Source: an uncultured Clostridia bacterium (GTDB lineage: Bacteria > Bacillota > Clostridia > Christensenellales > CAG-138). From it: DNA of 64,000 nucleotides. Made by a program: the position numbers and the translations under genes. The notes beneath the pieces were generated by a model. That model was given only the letters and a program-made list of their open reading frames with translations, did no database searches and was not told the DNA's origin. Shown here in pieces: positions 51,545-59,300 of the stretch (the first letter of the stretch is position 1; each line of letters starts with the position of its first letter). The stretch is from assembly GCA_946631895.1 (NCBI GenBank), contig CAMPAN010000003.1, positions 2,556 to 66,555 on the forward strand, written 5' to 3'.

Positions 51545-53092
51545 TTATTTCGCGTAGTCGACCGTGCGGGTCTCGCGGATGACGTTGACCTTGATCTGAC
51601 CCGGATACTCGAGCTCGCTCTCGATGCGCTTTGCGATATCCTTCGCCATGATGACGGTCTCGGTGTCGCTGACGCGCTCGGGCTTGACGATGATGCGAAC
51701 CTCACGGCCCGCCTGGATCGCGTAGGAGTAATCGACGCCCTCGAACGAGTTTGCGATCTCCTCGAGCTTCTCAAGGCGCTTGATGTACGCTTCGAGCGTT
51801 TCACGCCGCGCGCCGGGTCTTGCCGCCGAGATCGCGTCCGCCGCCTGCACGAGCACCGCTTCGATCGAGTTGGGGTCGACGTCGCCGTGGTGCGCCATGA
51901 TGCAGTGGATGACCGCGTTGTTCTCGCGATACTTCTTCGCAAGGTCCGCGCCGATCTGCGCGTGACTGCCCTCGACCTCGTGGTCGATGGACTTGCCGAT
52001 GTCGTGCAGCAAACCTGCGCGCTTTGCGAGCGCGACGTTTGCGCCGATCTCCGCCGCCATGATGCCGGCGAGATGCGCGACCTCAATCGAGTGACGCAGG
52101 ACGTTCTGACCGTAGCTCGTGCGGTACTTCATTCTGCCGAGGTAACGGATCAGCTCATGATGCAGACCGTGTACGCCGACTTCGAGCACTGCGGCTTCGC
52201 CCGCCTCGCGGATGGTCTGATCGACCTCCTTGCGCGCCTTCTCGACCATTTCCTCGATGCGCGCGGGATGGATGCGTCCGTCCATGATCAGCTTTTCAAG
52301 GCTGATGCGCGCGATCTCTCTGCGCACCGGGTCGAATGCGGACAGGATGACCGCCTCCGGCGTGTCGTCGATGATCAGATCGACGCCGGTCGCCGTTTCG
52401 AGCGCGCGGATGTTGCGTCCCTCGCGGCCGATGATGCGGCCCTTCATTTCGTCATTGGGCAGCGGCACAACGGACACGGTCGCCTCTGCGACGTGGTCCG
52501 CGGCGCAGCGTTGGATCGCAAGAGAAACGATGTTGCGCGCACGCTTGTCGGCTTCTTCCTTGGTGCGCTGCTCGATCTCCCGGAGCATAACTGCCGCTTC
52601 GTGCTTCGCTTCCTGTTCGGCGCGGTCGAGCACCATGGTCTTTGCCTCGTCCAGGGTGATGCCGGAAATGCGCTCCAGCTCCTCCTCCTGCTTCTTATAC
52701 AGGGCGTTGATCTCGTCTTCCAATTTGTCGAGCTTCTTGGTGCGGTCGTTCAGCTGCTGTTCGCGGCTCTCGACGCCTTCCAGCTTCTTGTCCAGCGATT
52801 CCTCACGCTGGAACAGCCTGCGCTCGTTCTGCTTGATCTCGTTTCTGCGTTCCTTGATTTCCTTTTCCGCTTCGCTGCGGATCTTGTAAGCTTCGTCCTT
52901 TGCTTCCAGGACCTTTTCTTTCCGGATCTCTTCGGCCTTCTTCTGGGCTTCATCGTACAGACGCTTCACGGCATCCTCGGCCTTCTCGACCTTTGCCTCC
53001 GCGACGTTCTTCCGATAGAAGTAGCCGATCACAAACCCGATGACGCCGACGGCAACCGCCGCGCCGATCAATACGTAGTGCAACCAGTCCAC
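51545..53092 (-). CDS. rny: ribonuclease Y
   Basis: N-terminal TM helix ([19 protein letters not shown]), Lys/Glu-rich coiled coil, KH (..[15 protein letters not shown]..), HD (..[20 protein letters not shown]..). GTG start with GGAG RBS. Confidence 0.95.
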
Positions 53093-53269
53093 GATATTCT
53101 ACTCCGATCTATATCAATATAACCGAGCATACTGCCCGGCTATTCCACATAAATTGATTCCAGTTTTTCGAAAAAGTTCAGCGCGCAGAATATGCGCGGC
53201 AAAGCGTTCCGCAAATCTATGATCGATACTATGATGAACGCACTTGGCAGTGCAGGATTACTCGATAAT

Positions 53270-53298
53270 ATTGTAAACGCTTTTTCCTGCAAAGTCAA
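53270..53298 (-). promoter_or_regulatory. sigma-A-type promoter of rny (about 175-nt leader)
   Basis: The minus strand reads TTGACT, 17 nt, TACAAT. Confidence 0.6.
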
Positions 53299-53351
53299 GG
53301 ACCGATCTGCATAAAAAATGCATTTCTGCATCATATATCTTCCCGGAACCG

Positions 53352-53813
53352 TTATTCCCGCCGCAGCAGCTTTTTCAGCATCGGCAACAGTCCGAGCTTC
53401 TTTGCCGCTTTGACAAGCACCGTTCTGAGCTTCCTCCACAGCGCGCGCAGCGGATAGATCGCGTTCCAGAACCGCGCATAGAACCGATAGCCGCGCTCTG
53501 TAACGACATGCTGCTTTCCCTTGCGGTTGAATGTGGTCAGTACGCCGATCACATTTTCAAACGGAACACGCTCAACGGCATACGTGTTGTCCCCGCGGAT
53601 GCGGTAATACCCGTCCTCCACGCCGATCACGCGGTGCAGAACGTAGCTTTCGCCGCGTTTATACAGCGCAACGTCGTATTTTTGCAGGCATGAAAACGGG
53701 GCCTCGATGATCACCAGGTCCCTGTTCTGCCGCAGCATGGGTTCCATGCTCGTGCCCCTTGTCTTATAGACCAGCCTGCCGTCCTGTTCGAGCAGATCCT
53801 CGAAGCGCGTCAT
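53352..53813 (-). CDS. S24/S26-family serine peptidase, SipW/Sec11-like (S26B-like) catalytic core without N-terminal membrane anchor
   Basis: ..TRGTSMEPML.. (nucleophile Ser box), ..YVLHRVIG.. (His where bacterial SPase I has KRxIG), ..RIRGDNT.. (GDN box). No N-terminal hydrophobic segment; the C-terminal tail is basic and amphipathic. The start overlaps the PqqD-like stop (ATGA). Confidence 0.7.
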   Translation of the reverse strand: MTRFEDLLEQDGRLVYKTRGTSMEPMLRQNRDLVIIEAPFSCLQKYDVALYKRGESYVLHRVIGVEDGYYRIRGDNTYAVERVPFENVIGVLTTFNRKGKQHVVTERGYRFYARFWNAIYPLRALWRKLRTVLVKAAKKLGLLPMLKKLLRRE

Positions 53814-54070
53814 TCCTCGATCGCGCCGATGCCGCGAAGCGTTGCAAGGATCTCCTCCACGTCGGCGTCGATCGTTTCCCGCGGCGCGTCATACTGCAGG
53901 CACATCGCATCCACGATCTGGTCCTTCGTCGTGTCGTTCTTCAGGCAGTTTACGATGAACGCCGCCGTCTTGTTGCTGCGTACGATCCCGTTGAACGCTT
54001 CATGACCGAGCGGTACCAAAAACTGGGTGTCGTCGATGTCCTGTACGATAAAATCGGATTTCAGTTTCAT
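53810..54070 (-). CDS. stand-alone PqqD-family protein (RiPP recognition element-type peptide chaperone)
   Basis: MKLKSDFIVQDIDDTQFLVPLGHEAFNGIVRSNKTAAFIVNCLKNDTTKDQIVDAMCLQYDAPRETIDADVEEILATLRGIGAIEE shows the PqqD-like pattern at a size of 86 aa. GAGGAGAG RBS present. The start is at ATG 54070. Confidence 0.75.
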   Translation of the reverse strand: MKLKSDFIVQDIDDTQFLVPLGHEAFNGIVRSNKTAAFIVNCLKNDTTKDQIVDAMCLQYDAPRETIDADVEEILATLRGIGAIEE

Positions 54071-54080
54071 ATTTCTCTCC

Positions 54081-55406
54081 TCAGCAGATGAGGTCGTCCT
54101 CATCCGGATTTTCTGTTAAGTCCTGCTGGTTGCGAATGATCCGTCTCAATGCTTCCGCGGCGAGCATTTCATGGGATTCTCTGCAATGATAATCCACCCA
54201 GGGGCAGTTGGCGAAGCTCGTGCATTCGGGGAGCATCGGGCATTCCCGGCACATCGCCCGCGTCCGGTCGGTCCGGCAGTATTCCTCTCTCGCAGCCATG
54301 TCGATCGTCCCGCTGACGATGTTTCCGTAGCAGCTTTCCGCGGCGCAGTGCTCGCACGGATACAGACCGCCGTCCGGTGCGATCACCACGCTGCCGCTGT
54401 CCGCCATACAGCGATGGATCCGGAATTTCATGACCGGTTCCGTATATGGAACCGGTTTGAAACCGGCTTCGGCGATCAGCGGATTTGCGGCAAGAACCTT
54501 TTTCCAGAACGCGATATCGCCTTCGCCTGCGCGGACCGCCATCAGCGGACTGAAGTATACATGCACGCGATCCTTGTGATCGACCCATTGCTTCAGATCA
54601 TTCAAAAACTGCGGAATGCCGGACCAGTTGCCTTCGTCCACGTTGACGCGCAGCGCAACTGTGATACCCGCCTCCGAGAGCCTGCTGATATTCTGCATGA
54701 CAGCGTGATACGCATCGAGATCGCCGTAATACCGCTTTCTGGCGATATAGTCCGGCTCCGCGCCGTCCATGGAAACTTGTATATTCCTTGTATGCCATGG
54801 TCCCTGCATCTTTTCGAGGATCTCCGGCGTGATCAGACTGCCGTTTGTGACGACATTGGAGCGGTACGGAATGCCCGCTTCCCGGATCCCGTCGCTGATG
54901 CGGTCGATGATCTCCGGACACAGCAGCGGTTCGCCGCCGAACCAGTTCAGCTTTATGCCGTTCTTGTCACAGTTGTCCAGAATATACCGAAGGGTCGCTT
55001 CGACCGTTTCCGGCGTCATCTTCGACTGGGCGCGTCCTTCCTCATAGCAGTAGATGCAGCGCGCATTGCAATGGAGAGTAGGCAGAATGATAAACCCGCC
55101 AATCCTCTTTTTTTTGGAAAACAGCCGCATCATGGACGAGATCGACTCATAAAAGGCAACCTCATCCTTTCCCTCGGGAACGAGCATATAGGTTTCGATC
55201 AGGGAATCGAAGCCTTCTCCTGCTTTCACCGTTTCCGGCAATACTCCTTCGATGCACTGCTTTGTCAGCGTGCTGGTTACATACTGCTTGCCGTCGCATT
55301 CAAAAGAAAAAGCGAAACGGGATGGCACATATGTAACGCCGGTGCACGGTTTTGCTTTCGGGAGCACCTTGAATAAAAACGTATCAGGTGAAAAAATCTC
55401 TTTCAT
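54081..55406 (-). CDS. radical SAM enzyme with C-terminal SPASM domain and about 95-aa N-terminal extension (peptide-modifying maturase candidate)
   Basis: The CNARCIYC (CX3CX2C) cluster follows ..FIILPTLH. GGEPLL is present. SPASM-type Cys pattern: C-MADSGSVVIAPDG-GLYP-C-EHC..C..CRECPMLPECTSFANC..C. Confidence 0.85.
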   Translation of the reverse strand: MKEIFSPDTFLFKVLPKAKPCTGVTYVPSRFAFSFECDGKQYVTSTLTKQCIEGVLPETVKAGEGFDSLIETYMLVPEGKDEVAFYESISSMMRLFSKKKRIGGFIILPTLHCNARCIYCYEEGRAQSKMTPETVEATLRYILDNCDKNGIKLNWFGGEPLLCPEIIDRISDGIREAGIPYRSNVVTNGSLITPEILEKMQGPWHTRNIQVSMDGAEPDYIARKRYYGDLDAYHAVMQNISRLSEAGITVALRVNVDEGNWSGIPQFLNDLKQWVDHKDRVHVYFSPLMAVRAGEGDIAFWKKVLAANPLIAEAGFKPVPYTEPVMKFRIHRCMADSGSVVIAPDGGLYPCEHCAAESCYGNIVSGTIDMAAREEYCRTDRTRAMCRECPMLPECTSFANCPWVDYHCRESHEMLAAEALRRIIRNQQDLTENPDEDDLIC

Positions 55407-55420
55407 AATTCAAGATAAGC

Positions 55421-55451
55421 AAAAAGCGGTATACGAAATTACGCATACCGC
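55421..55451 (-). terminator. intrinsic terminator/attenuator between the precursor micro-ORFs and the radical SAM gene
   Basis: The minus strand reads GCGGTATGCG-taattt-CGTATACCGC (10 bp, one G-U) followed by TTTTTGCTT. It ends 14 nt before the rSAM ATG. Confidence 0.7.
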
Positions 55452-55550
55452 AAACGGTAATCAAGCGTATGTGTTCAATCAACCAAGCGACAGGCTTCTG
55501 TTATCGGCGAAAAGAACAAACCCATGCGTTTGACACAGGTTTTTCGGTTC

Positions 55551-55700
55551 TTATTCTTCGACGATCGTGCCGGGCTCGTAGCCCACGACGCAGAATCCGG
55601 GACCTTCGCTGTCGCAGGGATACGTCCCCTCACAGGAATATGTGAGCACGTGATCGTTGATTCTGATAACTTCCATTTTGGGCTTTTCGTAATTCTTCAT
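55551..55700 (-). CDS. precursor-peptide candidate A (49 aa; below ORF-track cut-off)
   Basis: My own translation gives MKNYEKPKMEVIRINDHVLTYSCEGTYPCDSEGPGFCVVGYEPGTIVEE*. GGAGGT lies 7 nt upstream of the ATG at 55700. An alternative ATG is at 55706. Confidence 0.7.
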   Translation of the reverse strand: MKNYEKPKMEVIRINDHVLTYSCEGTYPCDSEGPGFCVVGYEPGTIVEE

Positions 55701-55724
55701 AATCATTACCTCCGTTATAGAAAC

Positions 55725-55859
55725 TCAAAAATCGGGGAGTTCGATCGAGTAATCCCATGCAGTGCAGCAACCATCATGTCGTTCGGTCGGACAACTCGCC
55801 GTGATTACATCTTCCGGCAAAACAATAATCTCCATGTTCGGCTTTTCATATTGTTCCAC
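55725..55859 (-). CDS. precursor-peptide candidate B (44 aa)
   Basis: Translation from GTG gives (M)EQYEKPNMEIIVLPEDVITASCPTERHDGCCTAWDYSIELPDF*. GGAG lies 8 nt upstream of the GTG at 55859. The N-terminus aligns with candidate A. The longer track ORF (to 55919) would start inside the promoter. Confidence 0.65.
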   Translation of the reverse strand: MEQYEKPNMEIIVLPEDVITASCPTERHDGCCTAWDYSIELPDF

Positions 55860-55922
55860 GATCTTCACTCCATCATTTCCCACATATTGACCGCAAAAGG
55901 GGAAAATACTGCTTCTCAATAC

Positions 55923-55951
55923 AATATAGCAAATTTGTGCAATCTTGTCAA
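55923..55951 (-). promoter_or_regulatory. sigma-A-type promoter (extended -10) driving candidates B and A
   Basis: The minus strand reads TTGACA, 17 nt ending in TGC, TATATT. Confidence 0.65.
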
Positions 55952-56093
55952 TCCGTTTTCAGAATATTCACAAATAATTCCGGCAAAACATCTTCGTTCG
56001 GACAATCCGCACAATCTGCAGCGTTTCGATCAAAATCAATCGAAACAATATTGTATGATGCTTCAGTCTCTGTCCGTTCCTGTCGATCTGCTA

Positions 56094-56192
56094 TTAAAGA
56101 GTGGGATCGGTAAACTCTCCGCCGCTCGTAGCAATAATATCGTCCTGCGAAAGAACAAGAATCTTAATCGTCGGTTTGATATATGTTTCCAT
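56094..56192 (-). CDS. precursor-like micro-ORF C (32 aa, Cys-free, double stop)
   Basis: My own translation gives METYIKPTIKILVLSQDDIIATSGGEFTDPTL**. AGGGGG lies 9 nt upstream. The leader aligns with A and B. Confidence 0.5.
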   Translation of the reverse strand: METYIKPTIKILVLSQDDIIATSGGEFTDPTL

Positions 56193-56247
56193 GAACCTAA
56201 CCCCCTATATTGTGATGCTGTGATTGATTCATACCATTCCTTATTTT

Positions 56248-56276
56248 ACTTTAGCAAAGGATTATTCTTTTGTCAA
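56248..56276 (-). promoter_or_regulatory. sigma-A-type promoter (extended -10) upstream of micro-ORF C
   Basis: The minus strand reads TTGACA, 17 nt ending in TGC, TAAAGT. It shares the TTGACAA...TTTGCTA layout with the promoter at 55923-55951. Confidence 0.55.
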
Positions 56277-56361
56277 TTCCGAATCGCGTCTATTCATAAA
56301 AAAGTCATAATTGCAGTCGTTCTGACGTCCCCTGTTTACAGTTTCGACGTTTTTCCGCGCA

Positions 56362-59300
56362 TCAGAAATCAAACAGAGAAATCTGCTTGTTCTTCGGCAT
56401 ATTGCCGAACGCACCGCAGCTTTCCAGCATGGCGACGATCCCGGTGTTTGCGCCGGTCTCGTTCGCGAAATCTTCGATCGTCGGATAGACTGCGCCGGGT
56501 TTTCTGCGCTCGCAGATCGCGATCGCCTGACCGGCGCCGACGCCGGGGATCGCGTCGAACGGCGGACGCAGCGCGTTCCCCTCGATCAAAAACTTCGTCG
56601 CATCGGACTTGTAGATGTCGACGGGCAGCAGTTCGATGCCGCGTACGTTCATTTCATAAACGAGCTCAAGGATCGTCACAAGCTCCTTGTCCTTCTTTTT
56701 CTCGCTGTCGGTCTTCTGCGTGGAGGACGATTCCTTTTCGATCTCGTCGATCTGCCGTTTCACCGCCTCCGGACCGCCCGCCGCGCGCGTGATGTCGAAC
56801 GTGTCCGCGCGCACCGTAAAGTAGACCGCGTAAAACGCCAGCGGATAATGCACCTTATAGTACGCGATGCGGAACGAAGACATCGAGTATGCGACCGCGT
56901 GTCCGCGCGGGAACATGTACTTGATCTTCTTGCACGAATCGATGAACCATGCCGGGATCTTGCCGTCGATCATCGCCTGCTCCATCTCGTCGGTCAGTCC
57001 CTTGCCCTTTCGGACGCGCTCCATGATCTTGAACGACAGCGACGCCTCCATGCCGTGCGCGATCAGATAATTCATGATATCGTCACGCGTGCACAGAACC
57101 TCAGAGAGCTTTGCGATGCCGCCCATGACGAGCGGTTCGGCGTTATTGAGCCACACGTCCGTGCCGTGCGTCAGCCCCGCGATTCGGATCAGCTCCTCGA
57201 ACGTGGTCGGGCGCGTGTTCTCGAGCACCTGCCGCACAAACCCCGTGCCGAATTCCGGCACGCCGAGCGTGCCCAGGGAGCAGCCGATCTCGGTGAGGTC
57301 GATGTGCAGCGGCTCCACGGTCGAGAACAGCATGCGCGTGTCCGGATCGTCCAGGGGGATCTCGCGCGGGTTCAGCCCGGTCAGCGCTTCCAGCATGTGC
57401 AGCGCCGTCGGATCGTCGTGCCCGAGGATGTCGAGCTTGACGAGGCGGTCGTCCATCGCGTGGAAGTCGAAGTGCGTCGTGATCGTGTTCTTGTCGACCT
57501 TGTCCGCCGGATACTGGATCGGCGTGTAATCGTATACCTCGGTATATTCGTCGTGATCGCGCGGCACGATGACGATGCCGCCCGGGTGCTGTCCGGTCGT
57601 GACCTTGACGCCCTCGCAGCCTTTTTCGAGCCGCTGGACCTCCGCGGACGAGAACGTGCGTCCCGTCGCCTCTGCGAACGAATAGACGCATTCAAACGCC
57701 TTCCGTTCCGCAAGCCCGGAGATCGTGCCCGCGCGGAACGCGTGTCCCTTGCCGAACATCTCCTCCACGTACTTATGCGCGACCGGCTGATATTCGCCGG
57801 AGAAGTTCAGGTCGATATCCGGGACCTTGTCGCCCTTGAATCCGAGGAAGACCTCGAACGGGATCTCAAAGCCCTCCTTACGGAGCATGGTCCCGCAGAC
57901 GGGGCACGCGCGGTTCGGCATGTCCGCGCCAACGCTGTACTTTTCATGATCGATGTCGAAGTCGGAGAACCTGCAGTTCGGACAGACATAGTGCGGCGAC
58001 AGCGCGTTGACCTCCGTGATGCCCGCGAGCATCGCCACAAACGACGAGCCGACGGAGCCTCGGCTTCCGACAAGATACCCGTCGGAAAGCGACTTTTTCA
58101 CCAGCCGCTGCGCCATCAGATACAGGGACGCGTAGTGGTTGCCGATGATGGATTTCAGTTCCTTATCAAGCCTTGCCTGCACGATCGGCGGCAGCGGATC
58201 GCCGTAGATCTCGTGCGCGCGGTCGATCGCGGTGTTCTTGAGCTCGTCCTCCGCATTCTCGATCGTCGGAGAATGCGTCCCCTCCGGGAACGGTACAAGC
58301 TCGTCGCACAGGTCCGCGATCCGGTTCGGCACGTCGATGACGATCTCCTTCGCCTTCTTTTCGCCGAGATACGCAAACTCGTCGAGCATGTCCTGCGTCG
58401 TCTTGAAATACAGCGGCGCCTGCTGCTCCGCGTCCGCGAACCCGAGCTTGCTCATCAGGATCGCGCGGTAGATCGCGTCGGTCGGCTCCAGAAAATGTAC
58501 GTCGCCGGTCGCGGCAACGGGTTTGTGCATCCGTTCGCCGAGCGCAACGATCTTCCGGTTCAGATCCCGAAGTCCCTCATCGTTCTCCACCCTGCCCTCG
58601 CGCTTCAGAAACGCGTTGTTGCCGATCGGCTGGATCTCGAAATAGTCGTAGAACGAGGCGATCTTTTCGATCTGCTCCTGCGATTCCCCGTTCAGAACGG
58701 CGCGGAACAGCTCGCCCGCCTCGCACGCGGAGCCGACGATGAGATCGCTGCGGTAAAGCATCAGCAGCGATTTCGGGATCTGCGGACGCACGTGCAGATA
58801 GTCGAGGTGCGACCAGCTGATCAGCTTATAGAGGTCCTTCATGCCCTTCTGCGTGCGGGCAAGCAGGATGATGTGGTTCGTCTGCCGCTTCTCCTTCGCC
58901 GCGCGCTTACGGTACGCCTCGTGCGTGTCCGGCACGATCGGAATGCGGTCGATCCCGCGTTCCTTCAGCATGTCGATAAACCGCAGCAGGATCATCGCGC
59001 AGGTGTTTGCGTCGTCGTCCGCGCGGTGATGGCTGCCCATGTCGATGTCGAAATAGGCGGAAATGGTATCGAGCTTATGGTTTTCGAGCGCGTCGCGCAG
59101 CAGATAGCGCGACAGCATCAGCGTATCGGCGTACGGCATCGGGAACGTGATCCCGAACCGGTCGCCGTGATAGGTGATAAAGCCCGTGTCGAACTGCGCG
59201 TTGTGCGCGACGAGCGTGCTGCCCTCCGCAAACGCGCGGAAGCGTTCAAGCACCTCGCGCGTGCCCGGCGCGCCTTCGAGCATGGATTGCGTGATGCCGG

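Follow-up and report, generated by a model that had tools for sequence, protein, structure and literature searches.

Three short open reading frames (ORFs), here called A, B and C, lie on the minus strand of a 64,000-nucleotide stretch of DNA from an uncultured Clostridia bacterium (GTDB lineage Bacteria; Bacillota; Clostridia; Christensenellales; CAG-138), namely positions 2,556 to 66,555 of the forward strand of contig CAMPAN010000003.1 in GenBank assembly GCA_946631895.1. This whole stretch is referred to as the window. We conclude that A, B and C are likely to be paralogous precursor peptides of a compact cassette for a RiPP (a ribosomally made and post-translationally modified peptide), with a leader that would be read by a PqqD-type RiPP recognition element (RRE) and cut by a SipW-like peptidase. 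Our analysis establishes the ORFs, their membership in a peptide family, the association of the genes, and the conservation of the Tyr-binding residues of the RRE and of the Ser and His of the peptidase. Within 2.9 kb the cassette encodes three enzymes and their three substrates, and it is flanked in the window by polC and rny. Its minus-strand gene order is precursors, radical SAM/SPASM maturase, stand-alone PqqD-type RRE and SipW-like peptidase, with the three enzyme genes after A being tightly packed. The genes are as follows.

56192 to 56094, minus strand: precursor peptide C, 32 amino acids (aa), ATG start, from the ORF call
55859 to 55725, minus strand: precursor peptide B, 44 aa, GTG start, from the ORF call
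55700 to 55551, minus strand: precursor peptide A, 49 aa, ATG start, from the ORF call
55406 to 54081, minus strand: radical SAM/SPASM peptide maturase, CteB-like, 441 aa, with Pfam Radical_SAM, Fer4_12 and SPASM
54070 to 53810, minus strand: stand-alone PqqD-family RRE, 86 aa counted from MKLK, the start being set by orthologue comparison
53813 to 53352, minus strand: homologue of signal peptidase I (SpI), SipW/archaeal type, 153 aa, its start overlapping the PqqD stop by 4 nucleotides (nt)

Putative precursor genes and their common leader

The N-terminal 22-23 residues are common to A, B and C while their C-termini are unrelated. The leader of A, MKNYEKPKMEVIRINDHVLTYS, is followed by the core CEGTYPCDSEGPGFCVVGYEPGTIVEE, and that of B, (M)EQYEKPNMEIIVLPEDVITAS, is followed by the core CPTERHDGCCTAWDYSIELPDF, with three Cys in each of these cores. 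Peptide C joins the leader METYIKPTIKILVLSQDDIIATS to the core GGEFTDPTL, which is short, acidic and without Cys. A preliminary description of this DNA had reported three paralogous micro-ORFs at this location, and both the ORF calls and an independent profile bear this out. Its alignment of Tyr4, Lys6, Pro7, a hydrophobic residue at position 9, [VI][IL] at positions 11-12 and a junction Ser is also correct. The independent profile was trained on 141 database representatives of the leader, with the window sequences excluded, and was run against all 1,687 segments of a six-frame translation of the window (64 kb). Only B (E = 3e-8), C (E = 3.6e-6) and A (E = 2e-5) were matched, the next-best segment having E = 2.4.

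All three ORFs have a Shine-Dalgarno-like GGAGG, GGAG or GGGGG 7-8 nt before the start codon. For example, A has GGAGGT 8 nt before its ATG at 55700 and C has GGGGGT 7 nt upstream. A second in-frame ATG of A, six bases upstream at 55706, would add MI and is an unlikely start because it lies too near the ribosome-binding site. The GTG start codon of B is ATG in its orthologues P0001 and L001 (89-93% identical). Comparison with L001, a related locus whose radical SAM enzyme is 93% identical to that of the window, revealed nine synonymous-only and seven non-synonymous codon changes in A, and eight and six such changes, respectively, in B. Judged by this comparison, silent changes in A and B are far above the expectation for unconstrained sequence, which is evidence that both are coding. 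Peptide C is not present in L001. Neither Pfam nor NCBIfam gave a match to A, B or C at E <= 1, and an Rfam scan of positions 53000-56600 found no family over the region, returning one chance-level miRNA match.

A large peptide family defined by its leader

A leader-only profile search of the databases had been proposed in the preliminary description. An exhaustive HMMER search of this kind over 1.84 billion representatives (threshold E <= 1e-3) recovered a precursor family of 4,489 representatives at 50% identity, and the profile provides a mining handle for precursors overlooked by gene callers and by family databases. A profile search of a word-indexed collection yielded 1,730 proteins at E <= 10, the best 120 of which all have E < 4e-9. 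Homology search of the word-indexed collection with B alone gave only two matches, and a profile is needed to recover the family. The members are unnamed peptides of 30-90 residues from gut or rumen metagenomes, and no Pfam or NCBIfam annotation was found on any family representative. The dominant leader is M-E-K-Y-x-K-A-Q-M-E-V-I-E-F-E-A-E-D-V-I-T-T-S, which is followed by hypervariable cores. This pairing of conserved leaders with hypervariable cores across the family agrees with the leader/core architecture originally suggested for A, B and C.

The best-conserved part of the leader is M-E-[VI]-I ... E-D-V-I-T-x-S, and the family motif as a whole reads Y-x-x-[A/P/L]-x-M-E-[VI]-I-x-[FL]-x-x-[ED]-D-V-I-T-x-S. 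An unbiased sample was obtained by scanning metagenomes with a DNA pattern that fixes M-E-[VI]-I ... E-D-V-I-T and excludes the Tyr/Pro region. Tyr is present in all 132 distinct peptides drawn by this pattern, the residue three after Tyr is Ala in 95, Pro in 23 and Leu in 14, and Lys precedes this position in 82 of the 132. The top 150 representatives at 50% identity have Tyr (145) or Phe (5), with Ala (105), Pro (40), Leu (3) or Val (2) at the Pro position. Precursors of the window's sub-family have YEKP, YVKP, YVAP or YLKP in L001-L004 and L069, and YVKA in L005. Across related loci a strict "Y.[KR]P" pattern missed most relatives. On the evidence of these alignments, Tyr is the family invariant and "K-P" is the state of the window's sub-family. 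Thus, of the Y-x-K-P leader that had been expected to be conserved in homologous loci, the Tyr stands and the K-P does not. The junction Ser is invariant in the alignments made here, and the spacing from Tyr to this Ser is 18 in A and B and 19 in C and in the main branch of the family. Two database entries, P0003 (65 aa, from a metagenome) and P0191 (130 aa), have two leader copies per ORF (MEKYEALEMEVIRFEAEDVICTS ... MEKYEALEMEVIRFEAEDVICES) and may be either true two-leader peptides or tandem precursors that became fused when a stop codon was lost.

Gene partners across related loci

The trio of radical SAM, PqqD and peptidase genes follows the precursors in L001-L007 and L010, and in each of these loci the peptidase gene adjoins that of PqqD. 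The same core set is also found inside the larger clusters L023-L027 and L034/35, where the order is TetR, ScmC/HprK-like protein, radical SAM enzyme, precursors, PqqD, peptidase, ABC transporter, a 314-aa protein and an NTP_transf_5 nucleotidyltransferase. Among the loci of the pattern-drawn metagenome sample, PqqD and the peptidase occur together in 58 of the 59 that have either one. When only loci that extend at least 3.5 kb beyond the peptide in each direction are considered, PqqD and peptidase are present in 13 of 14 and the radical SAM enzyme as well in 9 of 14; for a minimum flank of 2.5 kb the corresponding values are 21 and 14 of 25. Locus L062 has no radical SAM gene and has the order precursor, leucine-rich repeat protein, HprK/ScmC-like protein, PqqD, peptidase, ABC transporter and NTP_transf_5. 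The RRE and the peptidase are therefore the constant partners of the leader family, since they co-occur in 58 of 59 loci and the radical SAM enzyme is found in only 9 of the 14 well-flanked ones, and the radical SAM enzyme represents one of two tailoring modules that occur as alternatives or in combination. The preliminary description had pictured lasso-type RRE-leader recognition reused with a radical SAM partner; the lasso-type RRE remains part of this picture and the radical SAM enzyme as defining partner does not.

An extra precursor gene lies between the radical SAM/PqqD genes and the peptidase gene in L003 (6284-6654), L004 (6623-6754), L005 (6742-6909) and L006 (1489-1791), so that the position of precursors in the cassette is fluid. 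The large main-branch clusters, such as L023 (1-2689) and L026 (117-3669), adjoin genes for Tn916-type Xis/integrase, RepA_N/IstB or a serine recombinase and, judging from these neighbours, are probably carried on mobile elements. Unlike these large clusters, the cassette of the window has housekeeping genes, polC and rny, on its two sides.

A lasso/LPP-type recognition element and a SipW-like peptidase

Linear polyphosphorylated peptide (LPP) clusters of Bacilli comprise LppA, LppB, LppS, LppK, LppN and LppD (Popov et al., Nat Commun 2026, PMC13381572). Their precursors have the N-terminal consensus YxxPxVLxHQxIxFETxxS (PMC13381572). In crystal structures of LppB with its leader, Tyr-16 occupies a hydrophobic pocket and forms a hydrogen bond to LppB Asp70, a leader Tyr to RRE Asp bond that is found in LPP and in most lasso systems (PMC13381572). 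Additionally, Asn33 holds a kink at Pro-13, Val-11 lies in a second pocket and the next residues extend the RRE sheet, with the substitutions Y-16A, P-13A, N33A and D70A each weakening the leader-RRE complex (PMC13381572). The peptidase LppS (Ser29, His68, Asp93) cuts the leader after F-E-T only with LppB present, and Ser3 of the core is polyphosphorylated (PMC13381572).

The window RRE matches Pfam PqqD with 54 bits, its best NCBIfam match is lasso_PqqD and its only PDB sequence match is the lasso protein TbiB1. A single-sequence AlphaFold2 (AF2) model of the protein (pLDDT 72.7) has the topology beta-beta-alpha-alpha-alpha-beta, and Foldseek pairs this model with TbiB1 with bound leader (TM 0.73-0.75) and with the B1 protein 6JX3 (TM 0.68), with genuine PqqD ranking lower. 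PDB, NCBIfam and Foldseek thus agree in placing the stand-alone PqqD-like protein in the lasso/LPP type of RRE, in line with the earlier suggestion of lasso-like RRE-leader recognition. Its identity is 25% to LppB (E = 9e-6) and 33% to a Ruminococcus RRE of sequence similarity network (SSN) cluster 9 (E = 1e-16). In a 16-sequence alignment, every family RRE has Asn and Asp at the positions of LppB N33 and D70, and all except one, which has Phe, have Tyr at the position of Y60. All three equivalents are kept in the window RRE, and those of N33 and D70 are kept even in clusters whose leaders carry Ala for Pro. PbaB1, which prefers Trp, has Gly and Gln at the N33 and D70 positions. By these sequence comparisons, the window PqqD protein is a lasso/LPP-type recognition element.

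The peptidase matches NCBIfam sigpep_I_arch (E = 4.8e-7), and Pfam Peptidase_S24 weakly, and a membrane anchor is not evident at its N-terminus. Its identity to LppS is 28% (E = 1e-7), S22 and H60 being aligned with LppS S29 and H68, and its identity to SCH01704.1, an uncharacterised Ruminococcus SpI that also belongs to SSN cluster 9, is 35% (E = 3e-21). These matches indicate that it is probably the leader peptidase, a component that is absent from the first interpretation of the locus and is recognised here.

Proposed leader handling

What we infer is how the leader is bound, which chemistry follows, where exactly the leader is cut and in which order these steps occur. The leader-reading model is drawn from homologous crystal structures, those of LppB-LppA and of lasso B1 with its leader. 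The leader would consist of roughly the first 20 residues. By analogy to these structures, Tyr4 would sit in the first hydrophobic pocket of the RRE, hydrogen-bonded to Asp70, and residue 7 (Pro here, Ala in most relatives) would be at a backbone kink held by Asn33. Similarly, Met/Ile9 would fill the second RRE pocket and the x-M-E-[VI]-I stretch would add a beta-strand to the RRE sheet. The RRE-bound precursor would be handed to the radical SAM enzyme, which would modify the core. This modification would most likely be the formation of Cys-to-carbon thioether cross-links of the sacti/ranthipeptide type in the cores of A and B, and of these two only. The RRE-bound precursor would also be handed to the Ser/His peptidase, with the leader being cut within [VI]-[IL]-[TA]-x-S. 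The analogy to LPP (hydrophobic residue at -3, Thr at -1) would place this cut after the T/A two residues before the invariant Ser, and under the classical -3/-1 rule the cut could equally follow the invariant Ser. The invariant Ser is not adopted here as the cleavage junction, since the LPP analogy allows a cut after the T/A two residues earlier.

The radical SAM/SPASM enzyme

The maturase scores 53.5 bits against Pfam Radical_SAM and 21.1 bits against SPASM, just under the cut-off of 21.5. It has a CxxxCxxC motif and SPASM cysteines, which form invariant Cys columns in an alignment of homologues. Its best NCBIfam matches are Cys-rich-peptide and ranthipeptide maturases (TIGR04463, Clo7bot, CefB and PapB). 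It falls far below the cut-off of every curated maturase family (PapB, SCIFF, Clo7bot, CefB, TIGR04463 and others), for example 116 versus 525 for TIGR04463, which is the best, and 95 versus 340 for PapB. Its PDB sequence match is the thioether-forming CteB (5wgg), and Foldseek on its AF2 model (pLDDT 89.3) gives CteB, TigE, anSME, ChlB and SuiB as top matches. In this confident model the N-terminal 100 residues are beta-rich, with four strands and only two helices. Within residues 1-105, the helical part in the sub-family L001-L005 is ~14 residues shorter than in the 30-34% identical homologues L007-L012. An hhalign comparison of this domain with an RRE profile found no similarity (probability 0.3%), a null result that neither proves nor excludes a degenerate RRE. 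Taken with the model, these features suggest that the N-terminal domain may be a recognition domain in reduced form, and this would be in keeping with a requirement for a discrete RRE.

It is possible, although the less probable arrangement, that labour is divided such that the RRE serves the SipW-like peptidase only and the radical SAM enzyme reads the precursor by its own N-terminal domain or through the E-D-V-I-T-x-S half of the leader. The RRE and SpI do form an invariant, translationally coupled pair that is also found without any radical SAM enzyme, and L009 conversely has a precursor and a radical SAM enzyme with no PqqD or SpI nearby. The N-terminal domain is moreover confidently modelled where CteB has its RRE, and the C-terminal half of the LPP leader, which is without RRE contact, has been proposed to serve enzymes (PMC13381572). 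However, the domain has two helices and is not a three-helix winged helix-turn-helix, and with its shortness by ~14 residues and its hhalign result it looks like a degenerate RRE needing help. The genes also form one packed operon in which the radical SAM gene stands directly before that of PqqD. A common recognition step, with the RRE presenting the precursor to both enzymes, remains the arrangement that we favour.

Among radical SAM homologues that are 30-32% identical (L008, L009 and L011), a precursor is found upstream in some, and no PqqD or peptidase was detected within 5 kb downstream. In L009 the radical SAM gene is followed by a P-type ATPase gene on the other strand.

Core peptides with and without cysteine

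The cores of A and B are rich in Asp, Glu, Gly, Pro and Thr and have three Cys each, as is the case for most cores of the window's sub-family. Cys-free cores are found in 50 of the 150 representatives and in 64 of 133 surveyed peptides, and thioether formation therefore cannot be the universal chemistry of the family. One Cys-free type, GGEIGGGDEGFGD with close variants, is near-unchanged across dozens of loci, including L034 (4679-4789), L087 (11502), L089 (7677), L096 (3214) and L113 (5723), in contrast to the hypervariable Cys-rich cores. This type occurs in radical SAM clusters beside Cys-rich paralogues and also in LPP-like clusters that have no radical SAM gene. From its conservation it looks like a distinct, conserved product.

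The commonness of Cys-free cores bears on the status of C. We consider it rather unlikely that C is no substrate and instead a decaying or decoy copy, be it a leader-only peptide without a Cys-rich core or a titrator or activator of the RRE. Such a role would fit its length of only 32 aa, its lack of Cys, its absence from the 93%-identical relative L001, its own promoter-like site and the pairing, in L026/27, of a comparable Cys-free paralogue of 31 aa with a Cys-rich one. Yet Cys-free cores make up a third to half of the family, the strongly conserved GGEIGGGDEGFGD type among them, and C has an intact Shine-Dalgarno site, a start codon and a full leader.

Family peptides that are mostly Cys-free often lie from a few to ~80 bases downstream of very large surface-protein genes, for example in L032/L033 (6001-6111), L009 (155-4924), L062 (30-2930) and L028-L031. 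The surface proteins are of the MBG_2 and InlB B-repeat/List_Bact_rpt/GLUG kinds, with lengths between 900 and over 3,900 aa. Within 6 kb of the L032/33 peptides, neither an RRE nor a peptidase nor a radical SAM enzyme is encoded. This gene order hints that the peptides are linked to cell-surface proteins.

The conserved N-terminus might be viewed as mainly a processing or sorting tag for the SipW-like peptidase on secreted or surface peptides and not as a RiPP leader, with the radical SAM association being secondary. SipW proper processes secreted matrix proteins (cited in PMC13381572), many family C-termini are short, acidic and Cys-free, and several members directly follow giant surface-protein genes with no enzyme genes within 5-6 kb (L032/33, L028-31, L009 and L062). 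We regard such a tag as improbable, given that no N-terminal membrane anchor is evident in the peptidase, the leader is acidic and has no hydrophobic signal-peptide core, a cytoplasmic RRE with Tyr-binding residues nearly always adjoins, and the Cys-rich cores of the window adjoin a radical SAM/SPASM enzyme in a classic RiPP arrangement. Finally, that A, B and C are chance intergenic open frames with a coincidental motif, as their very short length, the GTG start of B and the lack of any database annotation could suggest, is effectively refuted by the independent profile (E 2e-5 to 3e-8, with no other match in 64 kb), the thousands of homologues, the Shine-Dalgarno sites, the excess of synonymous codon changes and the conserved synteny.

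Several observations nevertheless weigh against a RiPP cassette with RRE-based leader reading as we propose it. The radical SAM enzyme has an N-terminal domain of its own, which might do the recognising. The P-13A change of LppA weakens RRE binding, yet ~70% of the family carries Ala at this position. Details of recognition must therefore differ from those of LppA, and the occurrence of Ala or Leu for Pro in most relatives, with the RRE Asn being kept, provides a natural test of the "YxxP" requirement. At the spacing of LppS D93 the peptidase has, by our own reading of the alignment, Glu81 and not Asp. C and a third to half of the family are without Cys. There are also orphan family members (L032/33, L056, L068 and L151), for which several kb of surrounding DNA contain neither an RRE nor an SpI. 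Lastly, the cassette includes no transporter or immunity gene and its flanking genes here are polC and rny, with the L002 equivalent being located between an aminotransferase gene and rnf genes.

Transcription signals

Four further features are found in the DNA around the precursor genes.

56276 to 56248, minus strand: sigma-70-like promoter upstream of C, TTGACA-17-TAAAGT with TG extension, 10 of 12 consensus matches
55951 to 55923, minus strand: sigma-70-like promoter upstream of B and A, TTGACA-17-TATATT with TG extension, 11 of 12 matches
55451 to 55416, minus strand: intrinsic-terminator-like hairpin and T-run between A and the radical SAM gene, 10-bp stem with 6 GC pairs, then TTTTTGCTTA
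56023 to 56046, no strand: inverted repeat between C and the promoter of B, perfect 8 bp, GTTTCGAT-N8-ATCGAAAC

The promoter of C is a consensus match only. The TTGACA ... TATA block upstream of B is kept in L001, where the flanking DNA differs. The stem of the terminator-like hairpin after A is identical in L001 with differences confined to the loop, and the hairpin is contained within the minimum-free-energy fold (z = -3.2). Judged from these features, it probably attenuates read-through into the enzyme genes and would thereby probably keep precursor mRNA in excess over enzyme mRNA. The inverted repeat may serve C as a hairpin resembling a terminator or may be an operator, the latter being considered because there is no T-run. 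There is no regulator gene in the window cassette, and larger relatives have TetR.

Comparison with known RiPP systems

The window cassette and the LPP clusters share a number of features. Both have a discrete RRE with the Asn33/Asp70 pair, both encode a SipW-like archaeal-type SpI beside it, and each cluster of either kind has between one and three precursors, of which the N-terminus is conserved and the C-terminus variable. The leader begins with Y-x-x-P-x-hydrophobic in each case, with a Ser 18 residues after Tyr in LPP as well as in A and B. Larger relatives of the window cassette (L023-27, L034/35 and L062) also carry an HprK/ScmC-like protein, NTP_transf_5 and an MsbA-like ABC transporter. 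However, the window has a radical SAM/SPASM enzyme and Cys-rich cores and is without the HprK-like kinase, nucleotidyltransferase and MsbA-like exporter of the LPP core cluster; indeed no kinase, nucleotidyltransferase or transporter is found among the cassette genes between polC and rny. This minimal radical SAM form without a transporter is seen in the window and in L002. The leader differs as well, being M-E-V-I-E-F-x-x-E-D-V-I-T-T-S here and V-L-x-H-Q-x-I-x-F-E-T-x-x-S in LPP. Relative to the LPP consensus, the Tyr, the Pro, the hydrophobic residue at Pro+2 and the Ser match, while H-Q and F-E-T are replaced by E-[VI]-I and D-V-I-T, and the Pro is mostly Ala in the window's family. The hosts are gut and rumen Clostridia here and Bacilli in LPP, and identity is low (25% for the RRE and 28% for the peptidase). 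The nearest entries in the LPP data set are the SSN cluster 9 proteins, a peptidase and an RRE of an uncultured Ruminococcus that are listed in the supplementary table without characterisation (PMC13381572) and are 33-35% identical. The main text of that study does not mention radical SAM, and Radical_SAM, PF04055, SPASM and "radical SAM" were not found in the parts of its supplementary files that were searched.

With lasso systems the window cassette shares the RRE fold, the closest solved structures being TbiB1 (5V1U/5V1V) and FusB1 (6JX3), as well as the [Y/W]xxPx[L/V/I/F/A] leader motif, with the spacing of Tyr, Pro and hydrophobic residue being identical in A, B and C. It differs in that the peptidase is a Ser/His enzyme and in that there is no macrolactam-type core (Gly/Ala1 ... 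Asp/Glu7-9) and no G-x5-T leader end. The preliminary description had noted that no lasso cyclase and no transglutaminase-type B2 protease are present; this holds for the cassette genes and their immediate neighbours, among which neither a B2 cysteine protease nor a lasso cyclase was found, the rest of the 64-kb window not having been scanned.

PqqD and PqqE represent the archetype of RRE-leader recognition outside of lasso peptides, and the window cassette resembles them in having a stand-alone PqqD-family chaperone and a radical SAM/SPASM enzyme that act on a small precursor. PQQ precursor leaders also carry a lasso-like motif (introduction of PMC13381572). The window RRE nevertheless scores only 22.5 bits against the PqqD equivalog TIGR03859 (cut-off 46), PqqE is only a distant match of the radical SAM enzyme, no PqqA-type core or PqqA-like peptide and no pqqB or pqqC adjoins the cassette, and the leader peptidase is of another kind.

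Sacti/ranthipeptide systems such as CteB/thermocellin, PapB/freyrasin, SCIFF, Clo7bot and CefB have an RRE that is fused to the enzyme. The window cassette shares with them the SPASM radical SAM fold, with CteB being the best match by both structure and sequence, several paralogous precursors, and Cys-rich cores in A and B with Asp, Glu and Thr neighbours. It differs from them in having a discrete lasso-type RRE and an unrelated leader, and in that a third to half of the precursor family is without Cys.

The searchable literature, which excludes most subscription-journal papers and their supplementary data, contained no relevant paper on the leader strings EDVITTS, YEKPNME and others and no description of this cluster type. 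A bolder interpretation, which we consider doubtful, is that the window cassette represents a hitherto undescribed class of RiPP from gut and rumen Clostridia, in which a lasso/LPP leader-handling module is joined to a CteB-like radical SAM enzyme, possibly with non-thioether chemistry and a role at the cell surface. Chemistry beyond Cys thioethers is possible because up to half of the precursors are Cys-free, often within radical SAM clusters, and a role in surface biology rather than antibiosis is hinted at by the recurrence of members directly after giant surface-protein genes.

Reuse of RRE-leader recognition outside of lasso peptides is not new, as the LPP family (2026) already has a YxxP leader, a discrete RRE and a SipW-like peptidase. 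The present analysis extends this module of lasso-type Tyr-x-x-Pro/RRE and SipW-like peptidase from Bacilli to a very large, unannotated peptide family of gut and rumen Clostridia. It also points to modularity, with the leader/RRE/peptidase module being joined to kinase and nucleotidyltransferase tailoring or to a radical SAM/SPASM enzyme in what amounts to plug-and-play RiPP evolution, and the small size of the cassette makes it suited to heterologous expression. Compared with all of these systems, the window cassette is most likely a Clostridial, radical SAM-equipped, minimal form of the LPP/lasso leader-handling system.

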